Positions 12,217 to 25,015 of a DNA stretch of 64,000 nucleotides are shown one piece after another. The DNA lies in assembly GCA_965213625.1 (NCBI GenBank), contig CBDBZU010000004.1, positions 896,001 through 960,000 of the forward strand, written 5' to 3'. The DNA is from a bacterium (GTDB lineage: Bacteria; UBA8248). The notes beneath the pieces are model-generated. The model was not told the DNA's origin. It did no database searches and worked only from the letters and a program-made list of their open reading frames with translations. The position numbers and the translations under genes are program-made. Position 1 is the stretch's first letter. Each line of letters starts with the position of its first letter.

Positions 12217-14961
12217 CTAGAAGTCGGCTCTCAACTGAAAAGAGACTCCGCTGTTGCGGCTTTCGCCTTCGTATTCCAGGCCGAAGGCGAGTTGCGTGCT
12301 TTTTCGAATGGGCAGGGCGTAGCCGAGGGAATAGTGCGTCATTGGCCAGACGCGCAAATCGATCGTGGTTTCCTGTCGCTGGAGAGACTGCGATTCCCCG
12401 AAGTAGAACGCATCGACAAAACTGCTTCCGGTTGCGACGAGACGGCTGATCCGGGCCTTTCCGCTGCGAACCCCCATATTCTGGCGGACGGAAAACCGCA
12501 GGGCGTCACCGCCCCGGAATATATCCCGCCCCCGGGTCCCCACCGACCATCCTTCCGCCCGCAAGGCCGATATGCCGGCCACCATGCCGCCGGCTGCGGG
12601 GACCTCTCCGGTGCTGTGCTCGTAGCTGGCAAATCCACGCCATTTCCCGCCCAACTGGGTAGAGAAGAGCAACTGCTTTCTGAGGGTTTTCGTCCGGATG
12701 TTCCCGAGCGAACCAAAAGTCGCTCCCCAGACACTGCTTTTTTCATCGATGCGCGAGAGCTCCGCCACAAGGTCAAATCCATCGCGCTCGTGTCGCCACC
12801 GGAAGCCGTACTGGCGCCACGGCGCCCGTTCGGTTTCCCACCCGCTGACCGCAGCGAACGGCCGCGGGCCGTTCCCCTCCATTTGCAGCACGAAGCCCCC
12901 TCCGGGACGGGCGAAGAACGGGGCGGCGGCAACGGGACCGGTGGGTTGAATTGAGCCCCGTTCCCGCCACGATGAGCTCTCGCAACCCTCGCACAGTTCG
13001 TGGCGCAGCTGCCAGCGGCCCAGCGTGTCGTCGGCAATATCCATCCCGACGGCATGCGGCCTGCCGGTTCCCTGGCCGAGTTCGACGAACACGCCCCGGT
13101 TCTCGACGCGATAGCCGCCCGGCTGCGCGAGCATGTCCCTGGCGGCGGAACCAAGCGGGGGGTTTCCGGTTTCGACGTCGACGATACCGGACAGTTTCAT
13201 GTTGTAATACGCGCTTCCCACGCCGCCCACGGCAACGTCGACTGACTGCATCCGGTAACCCACGTGAGCGAGAGCGGGGGACAGGGTGATGCGGGCGTTC
13301 CGCAGTGAAACCGCCTGCGTCGCTCTTGCATCGCCGACCGAGCGCGGCAGGTGGACCCGTCCCTGCATGGTCACAGCGCTGCCCAGGTTCAACCGCCCCC
13401 AGCCATAGACGGGGTCCGGCTCGCGGGGGTTGTCAACCCGGGTCCCTACCGGATCCGCAGAGGCGAGCAAAACGGCCTGGACGACCTCCATCGGCATGCT
13501 AGGCAGCCGGCTCTTGAGCACCGCCAACGCGCCGGTCACGAACGGGGCGGCGAAGGAGGTGCCGCTGATTCCGCGACCGCCGGGGCCCACGGCGATGTTC
13601 TCGCCGGGTGCCATCAGGCACCAGTTCCGCGCCGCGCCGCATCCGTTGGAGAAACCCGCGATCTCGCCGCTCCTGTCCATCGCCCCGACGACCAGCCACT
13701 TCCCAAGCAATCCGGGCTCGAACAACGGGGCCTCCTTCCACTCTCCGCCGGAGTTGTAGTCGGCGCAGTCATCGCTCCCGCAGGCCGTTCCCCATATCTC
13801 CTTTAGCGGAATCTTGCGGTCCGGGTTGTCCGGGTCGGGCAGCCAGGTGAAGTTCTTCATGAATTCAACAGCGCTGACGGGCCCCTCGCCCAACCGGCAC
13901 CCGTCCTCCCCGTGGTGGTTTTTCCCGCACATGCGCACCTGATTGTTCCGGGAATTCCACCCCTCGTTCCCCGACGCCCACACCATCACGATGTCCGCGT
14001 TCTCGACCGCCGCCGCGACCTCGGCCATGTCTCGCCTCAGGCCGTCTACGATGATCGGCCCGAACACCGGCAGGGGTAATGTCAGCCAGACCCCTTCCCT
14101 GCCAGCGTATTCACCGAAATAGGATGTCGAGAATCCGATGCTGAAGTTCATCGCCTGCGCCCCGTTGGCAACCGCGTGCCGCACCGCTGCCGGGGGAAGA
14201 CCACCGCCGCTGAGCGCAATCGGGATGATCGACGCCTGCGGCGCGACTCCGTGGAAGTTAGGCGTGGGAATCTGGGTGCCGCCGGCGACTTTTATCCCGG
14301 AAGCCTGCCCGGAATCGTTGCCCCTCGCTCCCGCCGCAATCATGGCGACATAGGTGCCATGCCCTGTCCCGGCTCCTCCGTAGTCGATTTCGAATACCCT
14401 GTCGTTTCCGTTCACCACGTGACGCGGTGCCCTGATCCTGCCAGCCAGTTCCGGATGGGTGATATCCATCCCGTCGTCCACTATCGCGATGCTCACGCCC
14501 TGGCCGAAATAGCCGCGCTCGTAGGCCTTGTCCGCCGAGATGGCACCCAACCCGTGATGGACCCGGAATTCCGGAGTGCGGTAGTCCACGCCATCCGGCG
14601 GGGCGGGAACGCCCAGGTCCACCGGCTGGAAATCGAGTCCAACCGGATTCGGTGCGTGAGGCGCCGGCTCGCTGATAATCGCGGCGCCGCCACCCACGTC
14701 GCCGCCGCAACCGGCCGCCATAAGCAGGAAACACACCAGTATAAACAACCTCGATGATGTAACCCTGGCGATAGATGCGCGGCGCGTGACTTTCTGTGAA
14801 GGGTCAAATCCAAGAGATACCAGGAGTGCGGAATTACATCGTCTCTTTTCGAGCGAGGAAGGGACTAGGCATTTCAGCCTTCCGAGTCTTCTCCTCCGGG
14901 TCTTTCTTGCGGATGAGTTTGCTCGACCGTCATGAAATTCATACTCTGCTCGATCATCCAT
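12217..14961 (-). CDS. S8 subtilisin-like serine protease, putative lipoprotein with C-terminal beta-rich domain (true start probably downstream of 14961)
   Basis: Triad IVDDG / GHGT / GTSFAAPFVTGA, ASGNE oxyanion, YGWGRL; hydrophobic stretch then LMAAGC; ends in F. Confidence 0.9.
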   Translation of the reverse strand: MDDRAEYEFHDGRANSSARKTRRRRLGRLKCLVPSSLEKRRCNSALLVSLGFDPSQKVTRRASIARVTSSRLFILVCFLLMAAGCGGDVGGGAAIISEPAPHAPNPVGLDFQPVDLGVPAPPDGVDYRTPEFRVHHGLGAISADKAYERGYFGQGVSIAIVDDGMDITHPELAGRIRAPRHVVNGNDRVFEIDYGGAGTGHGTYVAMIAAGARGNDSGQASGIKVAGGTQIPTPNFHGVAPQASIIPIALSGGGLPPAAVRHAVANGAQAMNFSIGFSTSYFGEYAGREGVWLTLPLPVFGPIIVDGLRRDMAEVAAAVENADIVMVWASGNEGWNSRNNQVRMCGKNHHGEDGCRLGEGPVSAVEFMKNFTWLPDPDNPDRKIPLKEIWGTACGSDDCADYNSGGEWKEAPLFEPGLLGKWLVVGAMDRSGEIAGFSNGCGAARNWCLMAPGENIAVGPGGRGISGTSFAAPFVTGALAVLKSRLPSMPMEVVQAVLLASADPVGTRVDNPREPDPVYGWGRLNLGSAVTMQGRVHLPRSVGDARATQAVSLRNARITLSPALAHVGYRMQSVDVAVGGVGSAYYNMKLSGIVDVETGNPPLGSAARDMLAQPGGYRVENRGVFVELGQGTGRPHAVGMDIADDTLGRWQLRHELCEGCESSSWRERGSIQPTGPVAAAPFFARPGGGFVLQMEGNGPRPFAAVSGWETERAPWRQYGFRWRHERDGFDLVAELSRIDEKSSVWGATFGSLGNIRTKTLRKQLLFSTQLGGKWRGFASYEHSTGEVPAAGGMVAGISALRAEGWSVGTRGRDIFRGGDALRFSVRQNMGVRSGKARISRLVATGSSFVDAFYFGESQSLQRQETTIDLRVWPMTHYSLGYALPIRKSTQLAFGLEYEGESRNSGVSFQLRADF

Positions 14962-16695: not shown

Positions 16696-17493
16696 TCATC
16701 TTCCGCGCGCTAGCAACTCCCAAGAATTGCTGATGAGGAACAGCACCGCCGCCGCTAAGATGATGCACGGCCCCGCGGGCGCGTCCCATTCGACCGACGC
16801 CCAAAGGCCCGCAGCTACCGAGAAAATCCCCGCCAGAACGGCGAGCGCCGCCATCTGCTCGGGCGTTTCGGCGAAGCGCCGCGCTGCCGCCGCCGGTATG
16901 ATGAGCATCGAGGTGATGAGCAGAATCCCAATCAGCTTCATGGCGACTGCGATGATGAAGGCAATCAGAAGCATGAAGACAAACTTCACGCGGAATGTCG
17001 GGACCCCTTCGGTAGTCGCTAGTTCTTCATGCACCGTGACGGCGAGAAGACCTCGCCAGATAAAGGCGAGCGTTCCCAGCACAGCCGCGCCACCCAGGTA
17101 GATCCACCACAGATCCATCGCTCCGACGGCGAGGATGTCCCCGAAGAGGTAGCCCATCAGATCCACCCGAATCGTTTCCATCACGCTGACGGCGAAGATG
17201 CCCACTGAAAGCGCTGTGTGCGAGAGTACGCCCAGAAGCGTATCAACGGCCAGTCTCCTCTGCTTCTGAAGCAGGAGAAGCATCAGCGCAAAGCAGATGC
17301 AAGCGGTGAGAATGCCGAGCCGCAAGTCGATTCCAAAGGCGAAGCCCATCGCCACGCCGAGGAGGGCCGTGTGGGCGAGGGATTCCCCAAAATAGGCCAT
17401 CTTTCGCCAGACGATGAAACATCCCACGGGCCCCGTCACCACGGCTACGCCGACTCCGCCCAGAAGGGCGCGAATCATGAAATCTTCCATCAG
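16696..17493 (-). CDS. znuB: Zinc ABC transporter permease
   Basis: GPVGCFIVWRKMAYFGESLAH, DLMGYLFGDILAV, LIIPAAAARRF..TPEQM. Confidence 0.93.
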   Translation of the reverse strand: MMEDFMIRALLGGVGVAVVTGPVGCFIVWRKMAYFGESLAHTALLGVAMGFAFGIDLRLGILTACICFALMLLLLQKQRRLAVDTLLGVLSHTALSVGIFAVSVMETIRVDLMGYLFGDILAVGAMDLWWIYLGGAAVLGTLAFIWRGLLAVTVHEELATTEGVPTFRVKFVFMLLIAFIIAVAMKLIGILLITSMLIIPAAAARRFAETPEQMAALAVLAGIFSVAAGLWASVEWDAPAGPCIILAAAVLFLISNSWELLARGR

Positions 17494-17530
17494 GTGCTCC
17501 TGCGGAGGCATCTGCCGAGTTCGCTGATCC

Positions 17531-18142
17531 TCATTGCGGAAACCCCAAAACCAGCAAGTCGTCGGTGAACTCCATGACGAGGTGGAGATCGTGTGAAATC
17601 ATCAGGACGCCGCAACCCCTCTCGTCCCTTATCTGCATGATCAGGCGGTGGAGATCGGTTTGTCCGGCCATGTCCACGTTCTGGATGGGTTCGTCAAGAA
17701 CAAGGAGTTCGGGGTCGCGCAGCAGAGCGCGGGCGAGAAGGACGCGCTGGCGCTCACCGCCGGAAAGGGTTCCGACGGGGCAGTCCAGCAGATCCCCTGC
17801 GCCGACTTCCCCGAGGCTCTCTTCCATCTCCTTTCGAGACGGTTTTTGCGTCAAGCGCAACAATCTGCGTACTGTGAGAGGAAGTGTTGGGTCCACCGTG
17901 AAAACCTGGGGGACATAGCCGACCTTGAGGCCCTCCTTTCTGTTCACCTCGCCCGTATCGGGCTTCAGCAGACCGAGCAATATGCGGATGAGCGTGGTTT
18001 TCCCCGAACCGTTGGGGCCGACAATGCAGAATATTTCGTTTGCCGATATCTCAACGTCTATGTCTTCAAAAACAGGCTCCTCCCCGAAGCTCAAAGCTAG
18101 ATCATTGGCGGTAATGAGCGGTGTCCGGCCTCTAATCATCAC
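17531..18142 (-). CDS. znuC: Zinc ABC transporter ATPase (C-terminus apparently shortened)
   Basis: GPNGSGKTT, GYVPQ, LSGGERQRVLLARAL, SHDLHLVM; ends shortly after the H-loop. Confidence 0.85.
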   Translation of the reverse strand: MMIRGRTPLITANDLALSFGEEPVFEDIDVEISANEIFCIVGPNGSGKTTLIRILLGLLKPDTGEVNRKEGLKVGYVPQVFTVDPTLPLTVRRLLRLTQKPSRKEMEESLGEVGAGDLLDCPVGTLSGGERQRVLLARALLRDPELLVLDEPIQNVDMAGQTDLHRLIMQIRDERGCGVLMISHDLHLVMEFTDDLLVLGFPQ

Positions 18143-18476
18143 CGGACTCGGGGCGACGGCCGTTGATTTCCAGAACGGGCGTCGCCATCTGAATGTCGCA
18201 GGAGCCCATGGGCGCGTGGATCTCCCGGAGGATATCGGTCACCCTCCTGCTGAGCGGTATGAGTCTCGCGCCGCGCGTCCGGCAAAGCGCCCCGGCTCGT
18301 TTCAGGGCGTTCTCGATAAATGCCCCGTGGTCGTGGTCCTTGCCTTGAAAAAGATTGCTGTGCAATTTCACCCGGTGCTTCCCGACCTGATTCTTGAATT
18401 CCAATACGGATCGCTCATCATTGCTCCGTTTCACTGCTGGTTCATGCCCCTCAAACGCCGCTCTTCGCTTTTTCAA
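18132..18476 (-). pseudogene. zur: Zur/Fur-family regulator, N-terminal fragment
   Basis: DHDH...ALKRAGALCRTRGARL.PL.RRV..IL resembles the Zur N-terminus; C-terminal CxxC domain absent; adjacent to znuC. Confidence 0.6.
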
Positions 18477-19404
18477 GGGATACGACGTTCACCGGGTGCG
18501 TGTTGCGGCGACGCTTGTCGAAGCGGATATGCAGGCGCGAGGCATCGGCAAGGCTCAGGCCCGCTTCGCGCAATTCGCTCGGGCTGAATCCCTTGCCGGT
18601 CCGCCAGTCGCCGCGAGCGTCTCGCACGAGGGGGAAAATACCGTTTTCCGCGAGAGTGGGCTCCAAGTATTCTTCCGGCGATTCTTGCATCACCATAGCC
18701 GCGAGGGGCTCACCAACCTCCTCCGCGATATCTTCCGCTGGCCCACTCTCTTTAGCGATTTCCGGTTCAGGTGCAGCAACTTCTGCGGCGCTTTCCGCCA
18801 TCACCAGGGCAAAAACTTCGTCCTCAAGCGGTGTTTCTTCCTCATCCGGCGAATCTGGCATAACCGACGCCGTTCGTATTTCCTCATCCTCGGCAAAGGC
18901 ATCATCGACAGCTTCCGGTTCGTTCTCCTGAATAACCTCCGGCTCAGGCGCGGACGCCTCAGCTAGTTTGCCGGCTGCTTCCGAGGCTGCGACTTCATCG
19001 TCGTGAGACGACACCGTTTCTTCTTGCAACGCTTTTGATTCCGTCTTGCTCAGCAACTCCAGGTCGAGGCCATATTCCTCATATGGCGCTGCTTCACGAG
19101 GAGACCCTGGCGTATCCGGTGATTCATCCGTGACAGGCTCGGCCAATGCCTCAAGGGCGGGAGCATCGCCGCCATCAACCGCGTCCACGCCGTTCACTGA
19201 ACCGGTTGACGCAGGCTCTCCGGAAACGATCAGTTCCAGTTCCTGATGTGAACCAAGACCTTTGTCCTCCGAATTTCCCGTCGCAGACGGAATGCCCGGT
19301 CCGATGGACGCCGGAGGCGGGATCTCATACCCCTCTTCCGATTCAACCCCACCGGCACCCTTGCGACGCGCGATACGGCTTAAAAAATTCTTTTTGATAT
19401 TCAT
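18451..19404 (-). CDS. Acidic low-complexity protein with C-terminal ribosomal protein eL13 (L13e)-like domain
   Basis: Last ~60 aa WRTGKGFSPSELREAGLSLADASRLHIRFDKRRRNTHPVNVVSL fit the eL13 motif; ~250 aa E/A/P-rich N-terminal region. Confidence 0.75.
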   Translation of the reverse strand: MNIKKNFLSRIARRKGAGGVESEEGYEIPPPASIGPGIPSATGNSEDKGLGSHQELELIVSGEPASTGSVNGVDAVDGGDAPALEALAEPVTDESPDTPGSPREAAPYEEYGLDLELLSKTESKALQEETVSSHDDEVAASEAAGKLAEASAPEPEVIQENEPEAVDDAFAEDEEIRTASVMPDSPDEEETPLEDEVFALVMAESAAEVAAPEPEIAKESGPAEDIAEEVGEPLAAMVMQESPEEYLEPTLAENGIFPLVRDARGDWRTGKGFSPSELREAGLSLADASRLHIRFDKRRRNTHPVNVVSLEKAKSGV

Positions 19405-19964
19405 GCCACCCCCTCGAGATCGGAACCTCGTTGCGTGGAGAACAAAATTCCGGGGGCGGTAGAAACAGGTGAGACAGGCTACGGATTCAAGCTAGCGATT
19501 CCGAAGGCCCGGTGTCAAGCGGCGTATCGCCGGGCGCGCGGGTTTCAAAGGCGAATATCGACAGCGGGAAACCCGTGCAGATAGCGTGGAGAACAGACTC
19601 TCCTAAGTGAATATTAACGACGCGGGCCAATGTCCCCCGCGGTCGGTAATAATGCTGCTGGTTCACCGGGGCCTCCGAGTCTCCTGCCGCTGCCGAAGCG
19701 GTGAGGTCGTTGCTCTGACTCCTTTCGGGAAATACTTCTGCAGGCACCGGCTTCAGTACGGCCGTAAATATGCCGCCGAATCGTTACATTTCATCCAAAC
19801 CTGAAAATGGAAAATCTCGTATGTGATGATCATCCAACTCTCCGGGACGTCGGTCGTCGGCTAGTTCGTTTCGTGGCAGGGCGCGATTCACGAGTTCAAA
19901 ATACGCTGTTTCCGACTTGTCCGCAGAAGAACATCGCGCCGGAAGAGTAACAAAACCATCGCAC

Positions 19965-20150
19965 TCACGCCAATTGACGCGGGTGGATAGCTCGCAAGGC
20001 GTCTTCATTCTCCCGCTCCGCAAGTTCGAGCTCGTAACGATCCTGAAGATTCATCCAACTCCTTGCGTCCGTGTTGAAATAACGCGCCAGCCGAAGCGCA
20101 ATCTCGGCAGTGATACCCCGCACCAAGAGGTCGGACATACGACTGCACCT
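19965..20150 (-). pseudogene. HigA-family antitoxin C-terminal remnant
   Basis: RGITAEIALRLARYFNTDARSWMNLQDRYEL. Confidence 0.75.
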
Positions 20151-21775: not shown

Positions 21776-23161
21776 GAGTTACTGTCAAATGTTGTGTATG
21801 GCCGTCATGAGTTCAGCGGCCTCCCTGCCGGTTTCGTTTTCGTTCACCCCATCGATGAATCTCACGTCGGTGATCACGTCCGCCAGATGACGCAGGCCGC
21901 GTAGCGGCCCCCATCGCTTCTCGGCGCTCATGGCGAGTTGATGAACGAGGCTCAGCGCCGACTTCTCGCTCAGGCAGTTCCTCGTCTTCGCCGTTCGCAG
22001 CCGGATAGTGGCGAAGGTCGACTCGATGGGGTTCGTCGTCCGGATACTCCGCCAGTGCCCCGCCGGGAAGTCGTAGAAGGAGAACAACTCATCCTCGTCC
22101 TTCGCCAGGCACTCGACGGCTTTGGGGTACTTCGCCTCCCAGGTGGCGCAGAAGCGTTCGAACGCGCCCTGCGCATGCGCGCGGGTGTCGGCCCCCCACA
22201 TCTCATGGAGCATCGACTTCGCTTCGCCCTGAACGCTTTTGGGCATCTTGTCGAGAACGTTCGCCGTCTTGTGCACCCAGCAGCGCTGCGCACGGGTCTC
22301 GGGATAAACCTCCGCCAGGGCCAACCAGAACCCCAGACTCCCGTCGCCCACCGCCAGCTTCGCCGCCTTCACGCCCCGGTCACGCAGGCTCAACAGAACC
22401 GCCTGCCAGCTCTCCTTCGACTCCCTAAAGCCTGGTTCCAGGGCCACGAAGCGCTTGCGGCCACGCGCGTCGCAGCCCACAACCACCAATAGACACCGCC
22501 GCTCCCCGCTGCGGACGTTCAAGTAGATACCGTCCGCCCATAGATATACGAACTCCTCGCCATGCCACGCCCGCTTGCGCCACGCGGCGTACTCGCGATC
22601 CCACCCCTCCTTGAGACGTGTGATGCTCGCCGGGGACAAGCCCCCCACCGATTCGCCGAACAGCGCCCGCAGCGCCTCGCCGAAGTCGTTCGTCGAGACC
22701 CCCTTGAGGTACAGCCAAGGGATCACCGCCTCCACATGATTCGTCTTCTTCAGATACGGAGGCAACAACTCCGAGTGGAAGCACCGGCCCGAGCCCGAAC
22801 GGTCCCGCGCCCGCGGCACCTGGACCTCGACCGGGCCCACACCCGTCAATACCTCCCGCGACGGCAGATAGCCGTTGCGAACCACCGCGCGGCGGCCCTG
22901 CGCGTCTTGCTCGCCCGCATGTTCTTCCAGAAAGGCATTCAACTCCGCTTCCACCGCCTGGCGGATGATTCGTTGCGCGCCCGCGCGCACCAAGTCGCTC
23001 AACTCGTCACGGAACGCTGGACTTACAAAGGGTATCGTCTTATCTTCTCTCATGGTGGCGCATCTCCTTGTGCTGAATGACCGGGCTCTTTGACAAACCC
23101 ATTTCAGCAGGATGCGCCGCCTTTTTCAATTCAGCTCATACACAACATCTGACAGTAACTC
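21776..23161 (-). mobile_element. IS256 family insertion sequence
   Basis: 25-bp terminal IRs GAGTTACTGTCARATGTTGTGTATG (24/25 match); no flanking direct repeat seen. Confidence 0.93.
21785..23053 (-). CDS. IS256 family (Mutator-type DDE) transposase
   Basis: RNGY, VPRARDR, YLWADG, GDG, QRCWVHK, RTTNPIES. Confidence 0.95.
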   Translation of the reverse strand: MREDKTIPFVSPAFRDELSDLVRAGAQRIIRQAVEAELNAFLEEHAGEQDAQGRRAVVRNGYLPSREVLTGVGPVEVQVPRARDRSGSGRCFHSELLPPYLKKTNHVEAVIPWLYLKGVSTNDFGEALRALFGESVGGLSPASITRLKEGWDREYAAWRKRAWHGEEFVYLWADGIYLNVRSGERRCLLVVVGCDARGRKRFVALEPGFRESKESWQAVLLSLRDRGVKAAKLAVGDGSLGFWLALAEVYPETRAQRCWVHKTANVLDKMPKSVQGEAKSMLHEMWGADTRAHAQGAFERFCATWEAKYPKAVECLAKDEDELFSFYDFPAGHWRSIRTTNPIESTFATIRLRTAKTRNCLSEKSALSLVHQLAMSAEKRWGPLRGLRHLADVITDVRFIDGVNENETGREAAELMTAIHNI

Positions 23162-25015
23162 CATTAAGATCACTGCTACGAACCACGCCATCTGGACGGC
23201 AGGCACAGAGCATCGTCCAAACCGCCCCAACACCACCGCCTACGGCATCTTCGCTTATCAGGCGAACCCCGGCAATATCGACATTGACCTGGGGCTGGGC
23301 TCCTCCGTTCTGACCGAAGGAGATAACTCTCACGGCATCGTGGCCTACAGCTTTAGCGACGCCGACGCCCGGCGTATCGATATCACGCTCGACGGCTCGG
23401 TCACTGTAAAGGGTGAGGCGCAGGGGGTCCGTGTGGGCATCGTCTGTGGCGGGGCCCCGGCCCGTATGGCGGCCATCGGCGCCGATGGTTTTCGCCAGCA
23501 GACGGTGACGGTGAACGATGCGATCACGAGTGCGGGCGAGGGTATCTTTCTTGCCAACGGCGGCAAGGTGATCATCGGATCTTCAGGCAGCATCACTTCC
23601 GGTTCCGGGATCGCGATCCTGGCCGCGGGCACTGTGCCTGCGGTAGGGGATGATCCGAACACCACGGATGACGAAGCCATGCTGGCCATTCCACCGAAGC
23701 TGCGCGTGGACCTGAACCCGGGCGGGCAACGGATGACCGGTGAAGAGGGCTGGGCGGGGGCTGGATTCTCAATGATGGCGGGGAGACTACCATCGCGGTC
23801 AACGACACGGTATTGCACGAGGGGGCGACCGGCGTGGTAGCCACTGCGGTGGCCCACAACGGGGTCTGGGATGTGACGATGAAGGACGAGGGCGTGACGG
23901 TGAATGACCGTACGAATGCGGACCCCGCGATGTGGACCATCGCCCCGCGTGCGCCAGGGGTCATTGCGGATCGGGATTTCAATGCAGACGACTTCACGGA
24001 GGTAAGAAGAGTGTGTCCGGATGGGCAGGTTGGGATGCCTCCGAACTGCACCACTCCACCCCCGCCGATGTGTCCGGATGGGCAGGTTGGGACGCCTCCG
24101 AACTGTACCACTCCACCCCCGCCTCCGGTATTCATGGAGGAATACGCCCCGAGAGCAGCGGTCTATGAAGCCTTGCCTGATTTCCTGCTGGGCCTGCATA
24201 CGGCCCCCGCCCCCCCCGACCTGCCGGTATGGATCGAGCTGTCGGACCATACCGGGAGCCAGGACTTCGAGCACTCCACGGTAGATACCCGGTACGATTC
24301 CGAGCACCTGGTAGTCAGTGCGGGCGTTACGGTCCCGGTGAGTCGCCACTGGAAGATCGATGCCTCGGCGCATCAGGTATCCGGTTCCGCAGACGTCTCT
24401 TCTCCGGTGAAGGGAGGGGAAATTCACGCCCGGGGCCAGGGTCTGTCGTTTGGTGCACACTGGCAAAGTGAGCACGGCCACTACGCAACCGGTCGTGTCT
24501 CGTGGACGGACTATGATCTGAATATTTCTTCGGACAACATAGGGTTATTGATTTCGCATGTGGAGGCGGAACGGTTAGCCCTGCTGGTGGAGGCCGGACG
24601 TCGTATGGCCTGGGGAGAGCGGGCGCACTGGACCCCGCAGGTGCGTGTCGATTACATACAGGTGCGGGTGGATGGCTTTACCGATGCAACGGGGGCGCGG
24701 GTATCGTTTCCACAGGCCGAGCGGTATCGTGCGAGCCTGGGGGTGCTGGTAGATACCAGGAAAGAAGCCTGGGGCGGTGAGTTGTCGTTGTGGGGTTCGG
24801 TGCACCTGAAGCATGCATTCGGGGATACGAGCACCACAAGCCGGGTCTCAGGTGAGCAGCTGCGGGCAAAACCGCAAGCAGACAGTGTGCAACTCGGCCT
24901 GGGCGCTACCTGGCAGCAGGGTCCGTGGGCACTGAATGTTGCGCTGTCGGCCCGGCAGGCCTCCGGCGGAAGCCATACCTACTCGGGCTTTCTAAATGTC
25001 GGAATGCAGTTCTGA
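23162..25015 (+). pseudogene. Autotransporter, 5'-truncated by IS256 and frameshifted near 23755
   Basis: Gly/Thr-rich passenger in ORF 23112-23840 continues in ORF 23813-25015; YAPRAAVYEALP linker; beta-barrel ending in MQF. Confidence 0.85.
24014..24127 (+). repeat. 57-bp tandem duplication encoding CPDGQVGxPPNCTTPPPP
   Basis: Units start at 24014 and 24071. Confidence 0.9.

Follow-up and report, generated by a model that had tools for sequence, protein, structure and literature searches.

The DNA considered here, which we call the window, is a stretch of 64,000 nucleotides from a bacterial contig (CBDBZU010000004.1, forward-strand positions 896,001 to 960,000; assembly GCA_965213625.1, lineage UBA8248). 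On its minus strand, at 18451-19404, lies a gene for an acidic protein, P0001, that ends in a short basic domain of the type found in the ribosomal protein eL13. That protein is considered a component of ribosomes in eukaryotes and some archaea. The gene is the second paralogue of its family in the window's genome (G000), and the family is a lineage-specific accessory one, found in a single genus of Nitrospinota that is known from metagenome-assembled genomes (MAGs) and is sponge-associated. The gene and the parts of its protein (in amino acids, aa) are as follows.

18451-19404, minus strand: the acidic eL13-domain gene, an intact ATG-start open reading frame (ORF) of 317 codons (317 aa)
18454-18639, minus strand: predicted eL13-type C-terminal domain, aa 256-317 (62 aa), basic, isoelectric point (pI) 11.2, from profile matches and a structural model
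18640-19344, minus strand: polyanionic, probably disordered region, aa 21-255 (235 aa), from composition
19051-19074, minus strand: YGLDLELL, aa 111-118, the single copy in P0001 of the family's recurrent short motif
19345-19404, minus strand: basic N-terminal segment, aa 1-20 (MNIKKNFLSRIARRKG...), net charge +6, conserved family-wide

The eL13-like domain and its acidic tail

The first-pass annotation had read the C-terminal residues of P0001 (...WRTGKGFSPSELREAGLSLADASRLHIRFDKRRRNTHPVNVVSLEKAKSGV) as an eL13-like domain. These residues stand in the protein exactly as it wrote them, and four independent tests bear the reading out. First, the Pfam hidden Markov model (HMM) PF01294, Ribosomal_L13e, matches P0001 with an E-value of 9e-7 and 29.4 bits (cut-off 24.9), although the match, at aa 267-302, covers only positions 62-97 of the 180 in the profile. 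Second, the NCBIfam model of archaeal L13e, NF008914, gives E 5.8e-13 and 48.3 bits, short of its equivalog cut-off of 96. Third, a phmmer search of the sequences in the Protein Data Bank (PDB) returned 53 matches at E<=10, all eL13 bar one RamR variant, the best being 6rm3 eL13 (E 6e-6). Finally, an AlphaFold2 model of aa 250-317, built from a 56-sequence alignment, has a predicted local distance difference test score (pLDDT) of 86.4, and each of its best 50 Foldseek hits in the PDB is an eL13 chain, with TM-scores over the query (TMq) of 0.61-0.77 and identities of 31-38%. The best superposition reaches a TMq of 0.77 at a root-mean-square deviation of 2.2 A. Bacterial ribosome structures were absent from the PDB sequence and Foldseek matches of the domain.

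By HMM match and predicted fold, the C-terminal ~60 aa of P0001 are thus an eL13-type domain. As in eL13 (PF01294/NF008914), there is a ~60-aa core with a beta-hairpin, two short helices and a C-terminal helix, which carries the pattern G-[KR]-G-F-S...E-L...A-G...D-[KR]-R-R...N, and the model superposes on eL13 in 60S structures. Domain residues G23, S25, E28, D47, R50 and N57 are invariant in the 56 sequences, archaeal-type stand-alone proteins included, and the Arg/Lys-rich core G-[KR]-G-F-S...D-[KR]-R-R is common to P0001 and archaeal-type eL13. The differences are equally clear: P0001 is bacterial, it matches a limited part of the Pfam profile and scores 48 rather than 96 bits with the archaeal model, its domain sits behind 255 aa of sequence that is first basic and then polyanionic, and its gene is accessory, present in several copies and confined to one genus.

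The E/A/P-rich acidic stretch with an APEPE repeat that the first-pass annotation described is confirmed by composition counts. In aa 21-255, 20% of residues are Glu and 7% Asp (27% together), 14.5% Ala and 10% Pro; the net charge is -57 (-45 for the whole protein), and APEPE occurs twice, at aa 152-156 and 211-215. Judging from its composition and its variability in length, this region is probably disordered. A structure-atlas search (ESM Atlas) with aa 1-255 gave no usable match. On inspection of the sequence, the protein contains no Cys and no Cys/His metal motif, nor does it have a signal peptide or hydrophobic N-terminus.

The family and the relatives of its domain

A word-indexed search found 117 relatives of P0001, of 174-541 aa, nearly all with PF01294. 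Those that carry a source name are called 'ribosomal protein L13e [Nitrospinae bacterium]', with one labelled Rhodospirillaceae. The domain match itself is therefore already on record via public pipeline labels, and a caution for annotation follows: on these bacterial proteins, 'ribosomal protein L13e' denotes a domain match, not a function. In the alignment, the N-terminus is conserved (M..KK.FLSRI.RRK...EEG.YEIPPP.AI), the linker is highly variable in length between members, and the C-terminal 68 aa are strongly conserved (mean column identity 86% in 13 sequences). Motifs of the form YG[LD][DE][LF]E.L occur in one to four copies in 101 of the 105 family proteins that have the domain. When stand-alone short relatives were sought by shared words, only eight fragments of the acidic family itself were found.

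The distribution is patchy and restricted to one genus, g1. Of the 51 phylum genomes, 18 have a PF01294 match, namely G000 and 17 of the 22 other g1 genomes; the domain was missing from all 28 phylum genomes outside the genus and, as a control, from all 14 model genomes. The family's own profile matched 20 of the 51, again all of one genus. The two additional genomes are G023, whose divergent domain belongs to a member of the DruE-partner family described below, and G025, with a marginal match. With this profile, three of the 22 congeners had no match, and two of those three are at least 98% complete. Copies per genome range from none to three. Restricted to a genus and variable in this way, the gene behaves like an accessory one and unlike that of a ribosomal protein; eL13 ribosomal proteins are small, basic, stand-alone products of core genes, which the 317-aa P0001 is not.

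These data bear on whether P0001 is a true ribosome-bound protein, with its domain at the eL13 site on bacterial 23S rRNA and its acidic tail decorating the large subunit. The eL13 fold and core residues are kept and the domain is strongly basic (pI 11.2), as such a protein would require. Moreover, a domain swap described below suggests docking on core expression machines, and the gene's leader, with its possible sequestering box, is reminiscent of those of autoregulated ribosomal-protein genes. We nevertheless find the proposal doubtful: PF01294 is missing in 5 of 22 congeners (the family's own profile in 3 of 22) and in all 28 other phylum genomes, copy number runs from zero to three, the score is half the NCBIfam equivalog cut-off, and the PDB matches include no bacterial ribosome structure.

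A domain type that is otherwise eukaryotic or archaeal, in a family with repeated short linear motifs in its acidic tail and related loci from uncultured Nitrospinota MAGs, could also suggest a eukaryote-like effector by which a sponge symbiont acts on host ribosomes or the nucleolus. We consider this very unlikely. No signal peptide or hydrophobic N-terminus is present, the examined family loci have no secretion-system neighbours, and the domain scores higher against the archaeal model and bacterial domains of the long family introduced next than against eukaryotic eL13.

The eL13-like module is found well beyond this genus. When 1.84 billion cluster representatives were searched exhaustively with the profile, 732 matched at E<=1e-3, and 56 of them reached E<=1e-10. 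We examined 143 proteins, that is, the non-family part of the best 150 matches plus nine cluster members: 64 are proteins of <=140 aa, 60 belong to a family of long proteins (hereafter the long family), 18 have other architectures and one has no domain call. Against the archaeal L13e model, nine of the short proteins scored 56-121 bits, with one of the nine above the cut-off; one cluster is named Thermococci archaeon. Separately, two long proteins, P0138 and P0226 (decapeptide/pentapeptide repeats, a TrbI domain), each hit the profile in 16-17 short stretches, which reflects low-complexity cross-matching rather than eL13 homology.

Members of the long family (580-970 aa) consist of an N-terminal amphipathic helix, a polar linker, tandem immunoglobulin (Ig)-like beta-sandwiches and a C-terminal eL13-like domain. 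Among five complete members, Pfam places L13e, and no other domain, at the extreme C-terminus of four and finds nothing in the fifth. A model of one member, P0170 (pLDDT 88.7), has consecutive beta-sandwiches (~450 aa, Ig-like) followed by the eL13-like domain, and Foldseek matches it to tandem-Ig proteins (titin, contactin and similar chains). Its genes are tied to a helicase. In a Gammaproteobacteria MAG (L049:4-5564), the overlapping downstream gene encodes a 1404-aa helicase that matches the PADLOC model DruE1 (E 6e-156). In 11 of the 11 assessable loci among 14 from metagenomes (L052-L065), the next gene downstream, in the same orientation, is DruE-like; the remaining three end <=281 nt past the long-family gene. 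A PADLOC scan of P0001, the L049 fragment and five complete members of the long family gave no match at E<=1e-3.

Within the phylum, the long-family core occurs in two of the 51 genomes (G023 and G025), both lacking the acidic family; as these are close kin and few, the complementary distribution is only a lead. G023 (L068:4959-11202) has a 660-aa long-family gene followed by a 1425-aa DruE-like gene (DEAD, Helicase_C and MrfA Zn-binding domains). The G025 member (L070:976-3366) ends instead in an RNA_pol_Rpb6 (omega) domain (E 6.5e-8, 32.9 bits versus a cut-off of 26), with a DruE-like gene starting about 200 nt downstream. This replacement indicates that the C-terminal module of the long family is exchangeable, the fold of a ribosomal protein giving way to that of an RNA-polymerase subunit. 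An eL13-like C-terminus as a general trait of DruE partners was considered and rejected, as the partner encoded on a Clostridium plasmid has no such domain and that of G025 has Rpb6.

By analogy, the long family and its DruE-like gene look like an undescribed Druantia-like two-gene module and would be a putative phage defence. According to a preprint, DruH, from Druantia systems of type III, is built of a globular N-domain, then six subdomains of Ig type and lastly a C-terminal domain, and single-stranded DNA (ssDNA) is bound between the latter and Ig5 (10.64898/2026.05.12.722862). On that description, DruH resembles the long family (not P0001) in its architecture and in being encoded directly upstream of DruE. 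No DruH model was among the PADLOC matches, in a library whose DruH content was not checked, and no DruH chain appeared in the PDB searches. The literature search, from which subscription journals and supplements were outside scope, found no paper on either bacterial architecture. These architectures are the acidic, motif-bearing protein confined to one genus, and the family of eL13-ended Ig-repeat proteins tied to DruE-like helicases.

How do the two bacterial families relate? Ranked by profile score, the long-family domains are the closest relatives of the acidic family's domain: outside the family, its profile scores highest with the long-family proteins P0127 (91 bits) and P0128 (77 bits), whereas among proteins of <=140 aa the top score is 67.5 bits, from one of 55 aa, and no archaeal-type stand-alone protein exceeds 66 bits. 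In an hhalign comparison, only the C-terminal 67 columns align (42% identity, E 7.6e-22). We built two trees, a rapid one from 162 rows and a more careful one from 58 (10, 24 and 24 from three groups, with seven long-branch rows excluded). The acidic-family domains form one clade with a Shimodaira-Hasegawa-like approximate likelihood ratio test (SH-aLRT) support of 96 and an ultrafast bootstrap (UFboot) of 99, and this clade falls weakly among the long-family domains (SH-aLRT 72-83, UFboot 20-25). We tentatively favour domain shuffling within bacteria over direct transfer from an archaeon. The first-pass annotation had proposed horizontal acquisition; the patchy distribution fits acquisition or domain shuffling, and the topology tests of the last section reject neither placement of the domain. 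We also considered whether an internal deletion in a long-family gene gave rise to the whole acidic protein, but found no support: the N-terminal likeness is not significant (hhalign E 0.36, BLASTP E 2.5), and long-family proteins lack the motif.

Outside the domain, the families differ. The long family, with members such as P0130 and P0170, has a tandem Ig-like core and an obligatory downstream DruE-like gene, and P0001 has neither: the sequence downstream of its gene holds a zur remnant and znuCB, and no helicase. The narrower YGLDLELL-type pattern occurs in 112 of 125 acidic-family proteins and in none of 60 long-family proteins. In the window's own genome, DruE1 had no match at E<=1e-5, and a search with P0130 matched only the C-terminal domain, not the long-family core.

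It is against this background that a role in phage defence has to be judged, in which the acidic protein would derive from the DruE-partner family or accompany it, and would act as decoy, regulator or remnant sensor with the same module and the same target. The profile scores of P0127 and P0128 and the position in the tree speak for it, as do the similar openings of the two families (a short basic helix, then a polar or acidic linker) and their complementary occurrence. So does the chromosomal location: the G023 pair lies between a remnant of c7 and c8/c16, that is, in the interval that holds the acidic gene in its carriers, and toxin-antitoxin modules lie beside primary copies (see below). 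On the other hand, both the long-family core and any match to DruE are missing from the window's genome, the N-terminal similarity is not significant, the motif is missing from 60 of 60 long-family proteins, the acidic gene is oriented unlike the long-family gene of G023, tree support is weak with a neutral topology test, PADLOC gives no match, and the complementary distribution comes down to two closely related genomes. We therefore regard such a role as unlikely.

A duplicated cassette beside the zinc genes

The following features lie around the gene and in the sequence next to it.

18447-19539, minus strand: paralogue homology (duplicated cassette), the ORF plus about 120-135 nt upstream, from blastn and contig forks
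19513-19518, minus strand: -35 hexamer TTGACA, conserved upstream of family genes
19489-19494, minus strand: -10-like hexamer TAGCTT, 18 nt after the -35, from spacing
19405-19480, minus strand: conserved 5' leader, containing a C-rich box and a Shine-Dalgarno (SD) sequence; the leader is ~90 nt long
19452-19460, minus strand: C-rich box ACCGCCCC(C), invariant or nearly so in 15 unique leaders
19406-19415, minus strand: strong SD sequence GAGGGGGTGG, likewise (nearly) invariant in the 15 unique leaders
18132-18476, minus strand: ORF of 114 aa, a remnant of zur that has lost about 226 nt internally, from comparison with a congener
17531-18142, minus strand: znuC, 203 aa (NF007090, E 7.3e-67, 225 bits against a cut-off of 306)
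16696-17511, minus strand: znuB, 271 aa (PF00950, E 1.6e-70; NF007089, E 1.2e-82)

We compared 17 loci, 16 fetched ones and the window. Thirteen of them share one conserved region and are called primary copies here; the other copy in the window's genome (G000:C4:3666499-3666633) is in this primary context. On one side the region has an alpha/beta hydrolase gene (upstream, same strand) and genes for a flavin mononucleotide (FMN) reductase, a luciferase-like monooxygenase and a PEGA protein, with an IlvD-type dehydratase, a 2-hydroxyacid dehydrogenase and SRAP on the same side as the PEGA protein; on the other side are a convergent NmrA-like gene and TRAP-transporter genes. HicA/HicB and UPF0175-type modules adjoin the primary copies in several congeners (L017:9010-9674; L020:11100-11471; L021:8332-8841; L022:8995-12205), and these insertions mark the c7-c8 interval as an insertion hot spot. 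Only two of the 17 loci have znuB/znuC beside the family gene, namely the window and the second copy of the congener G014. Two further extra copies, both in G031, are fragmentary and lie in different surroundings.

In the window, the gene is part of a duplicated cassette of ~1.09 kb that comprises the ORF together with the promoter and leader belonging to it. In blastn comparisons with three primary copies, homology is bounded by the stop codon (18447) on one side and by 19524-19539 on the other, the upstream limit being 120-135 nt before the start codon. Short-read contigs fork at 18460 and 19539, and contigs from four runs (of one study, possibly from the source sample) confirm 17500-18490 with no differences. 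The homologous upstream stretch includes the conserved -35, the -10-like box, the C-rich box and the SD sequence, and so the copy brought its promoter and leader with it.

As far as conservation of sequence can tell, this promoter is sigma70-like and belongs to the gene itself. All 13 aligned upstream regions and the 15 unique 5' regions have CTTGAC without variation, and a block TCG(C/T)TAG(T/C)(T/C)T aligns in all 13 loci. The role of TAGCTT as the -10 is suggested by its spacing; it is a weak -10, for which reason a consensus promoter scan gave no call. In the leader, RNAalifold pairs CCGCCC of the C-rich box with GGGCGG of the SD sequence (6 bp), so that the box could sequester the SD and exert translational control. 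An Rfam scan of 18000-20000 matched no family. The promoter and leader stretch as a whole (19405-19520, minus strand) has conserved counterparts at 14 other loci.

The zinc genes next to the cassette appear to be decaying. The 114-aa ORF matches no FUR or Zur model of Pfam or NCBIfam. In G014, the orthologous stretch is ~226 bases longer and contains a frame piece that matches NCBIfam Zur (E 2.3e-9, profile positions 34-86 of 171), which justifies the first-pass label of a zur fragment; Pfam FUR missed this fuller piece too, and only the NCBIfam model matched. The G014 zur has frameshifts and stops, and its znuC has an internal stop. In both genomes, ZnuC ends at profile position 194 of 251, the last ~55 positions being gone. 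No znuA was seen next to zur-znuC-znuB.

The first-pass annotation had placed the gene at the head of zur-znuC-znuB and linked it, with caution, to zinc status. Its description of the arrangement stands: all the genes are on the minus strand, and the family gene abuts the zur remnant and znuCB. In favour of a ribosome- or RNA-associated factor that heads a Zur-controlled zur-znuCB operon are the shared strand, the tight spacing, the lack of a convincing terminator between the gene and the zinc genes, and the same arrangement in one congener (G014). The inference from it does not hold up. Linkage to znu genes is seen in two of 17 loci, while 13 of 17 are in the other, conserved context; the duplication carried the gene's promoter along; znuC is truncated, and zur has suffered deletion or frameshift; the sole Fur-family gene that passes the Pfam cut-off, and the only intact one, lies ~1 Mb away in the window's genome; no Zur-box-like palindrome was found upstream of the gene; and the protein lacks a Cys/His metal motif.

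Known zinc-responsive alternative ribosomal proteins are zinc-ribbon paralogues that have lost their Cys ligands. The domain of P0001 is eL13-like and has no zinc ribbon, and the protein has no Cys; nor does its gene have the conserved zur/znu linkage or Zur operator of the alternative ribosomal proteins of Zur regulons. As a cassette with its own promoter has been inserted next to a decaying operon, the position of the gene looks like an accident of insertion. The zinc link is unsupported, and we hold a zinc-status role to be largely refuted and extremely improbable.

The surroundings contain other mobile and variable elements. A Mutator-type transposase gene (21785-23053; PF00872, E 3.6e-67) lies 2.4 kb upstream of the P0001 gene, and past it are genes for an autotransporter beta-domain protein (23813-25015) and RND-type (resistance-nodulation-division) efflux. 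The same transposase, autotransporter and efflux neighbours recur beside an extra family copy in G031, which points to a variable region. Downstream of the znu genes, 12217-14961 (minus strand) encodes a 914-aa subtilase-family protein (PF00082, E 2.8e-35).

An accessory protein with an eL13-type module

Overall, we lean, by a little, towards P0001 being an accessory protein whose eL13-like domain attaches it to nucleic acid or the ribosome, rather than a core ribosomal protein or part of a zinc response. A ~1.09-kb cassette was duplicated into a variable region bearing an insertion sequence (IS), upstream of the decaying zur-znuC-znuB. Its product's C-terminal domain would retain the nucleic-acid-binding role of eL13 and anchor the protein to RNA, most plausibly rRNA or the ribosome, or possibly to ssDNA. 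To our knowledge, the only known role of the fold is ribosomal. This, together with the Rpb6 swap in the sister family, makes the ribosome or rRNA the most economical guess at a target, and the analogy with DruH is what suggests ssDNA as the alternative.

The polyanionic tail may then compete with nucleic acid for the basic domain (autoinhibition) or show its repeated motifs to a partner. HMGB1, Hfq and SSB are nucleic-acid-binding proteins with autoinhibitory acidic tails, and the likeness to them lies in the proposed mechanism only, a basic nucleic-acid-binding module tethered to a polyanionic disordered segment. There is no homology, and in P0001 the acidic part precedes the basic domain, is much longer at 235 aa and has a repeated motif of hydrophobic and acidic residues.

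Several points weigh against this reading. Binding to nucleic acid or the ribosome is suggested by homology, and autoinhibition or partner display by analogy with other proteins. The candidate SD-sequestering helix has no covariation in the leader alignment, where covariation is in any case uninformative because both sides of the 6-bp helix are invariant, and the fold energy of the single leader sequence is ordinary (z -1.05, not significant). On the origin of the domain, the approximately unbiased (AU) test rejects neither a grouping with the archaeal-type short proteins (p 0.211) nor one with the long family (p 0.204); the phylogeny against archaeal eL13 proposed in the first-pass annotation yields the weakly supported placement among long-family domains. 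Finally, the window copy deviates at conserved positions, with, for example, Pro in place of a nearly invariant Arg in GKGFS-R. These departures, together with its higher ratio of non-synonymous to synonymous substitution rates (dN/dS) against the orthologue, mean that constraint on the window copy may be relaxed.

Taken further, the last point would make the window copy a decaying, functionless duplicate. Its neighbours include pseudogenes and an IS element, some of its conserved positions are substituted, and its dN/dS against the orthologue is 0.41-0.49. However, the 317-codon frame is intact, promoter, leader and SD sequence are kept, dN/dS is still below 1, and the G014 orthologue is likewise intact. 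The window copy has a dN/dS of 0.29-0.49 in the domain and 0.29-0.41 in the tail (0.49 and 0.41 against the orthologue, 0.29 against the primary copy). Purifying selection on it is thus moderate and the gene is not obviously dead, and we think complete loss of function quite improbable.

The preferred reading, an accessory protein with a nucleic-acid- or ribosome-binding domain, can be set in a broader and more speculative frame, to which we give only limited credence. Modules of the expression machinery (eL13-type and Rpb6/omega-type) may have been domesticated as exchangeable C-terminal docking or decoy modules that place DruE-partner sensors, with the acidic protein as a stripped-down offshoot. 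If so, the immune sensors that partner DruE would sit on the ribosome, RNA polymerase or their nucleic acids, and the acidic protein of Nitrospinota would put a polyanionic, motif-bearing tail at the same site. Independently of this frame, the 732 cluster representatives from one exhaustive search show that the eL13 core fold circulates in bacteria as a module. If this module docks on rRNA or the ribosome, it would give a handle on where a Druantia-like system looks for infection, and would be a natural case of a ribosomal-protein fold re-used outside the ribosome.

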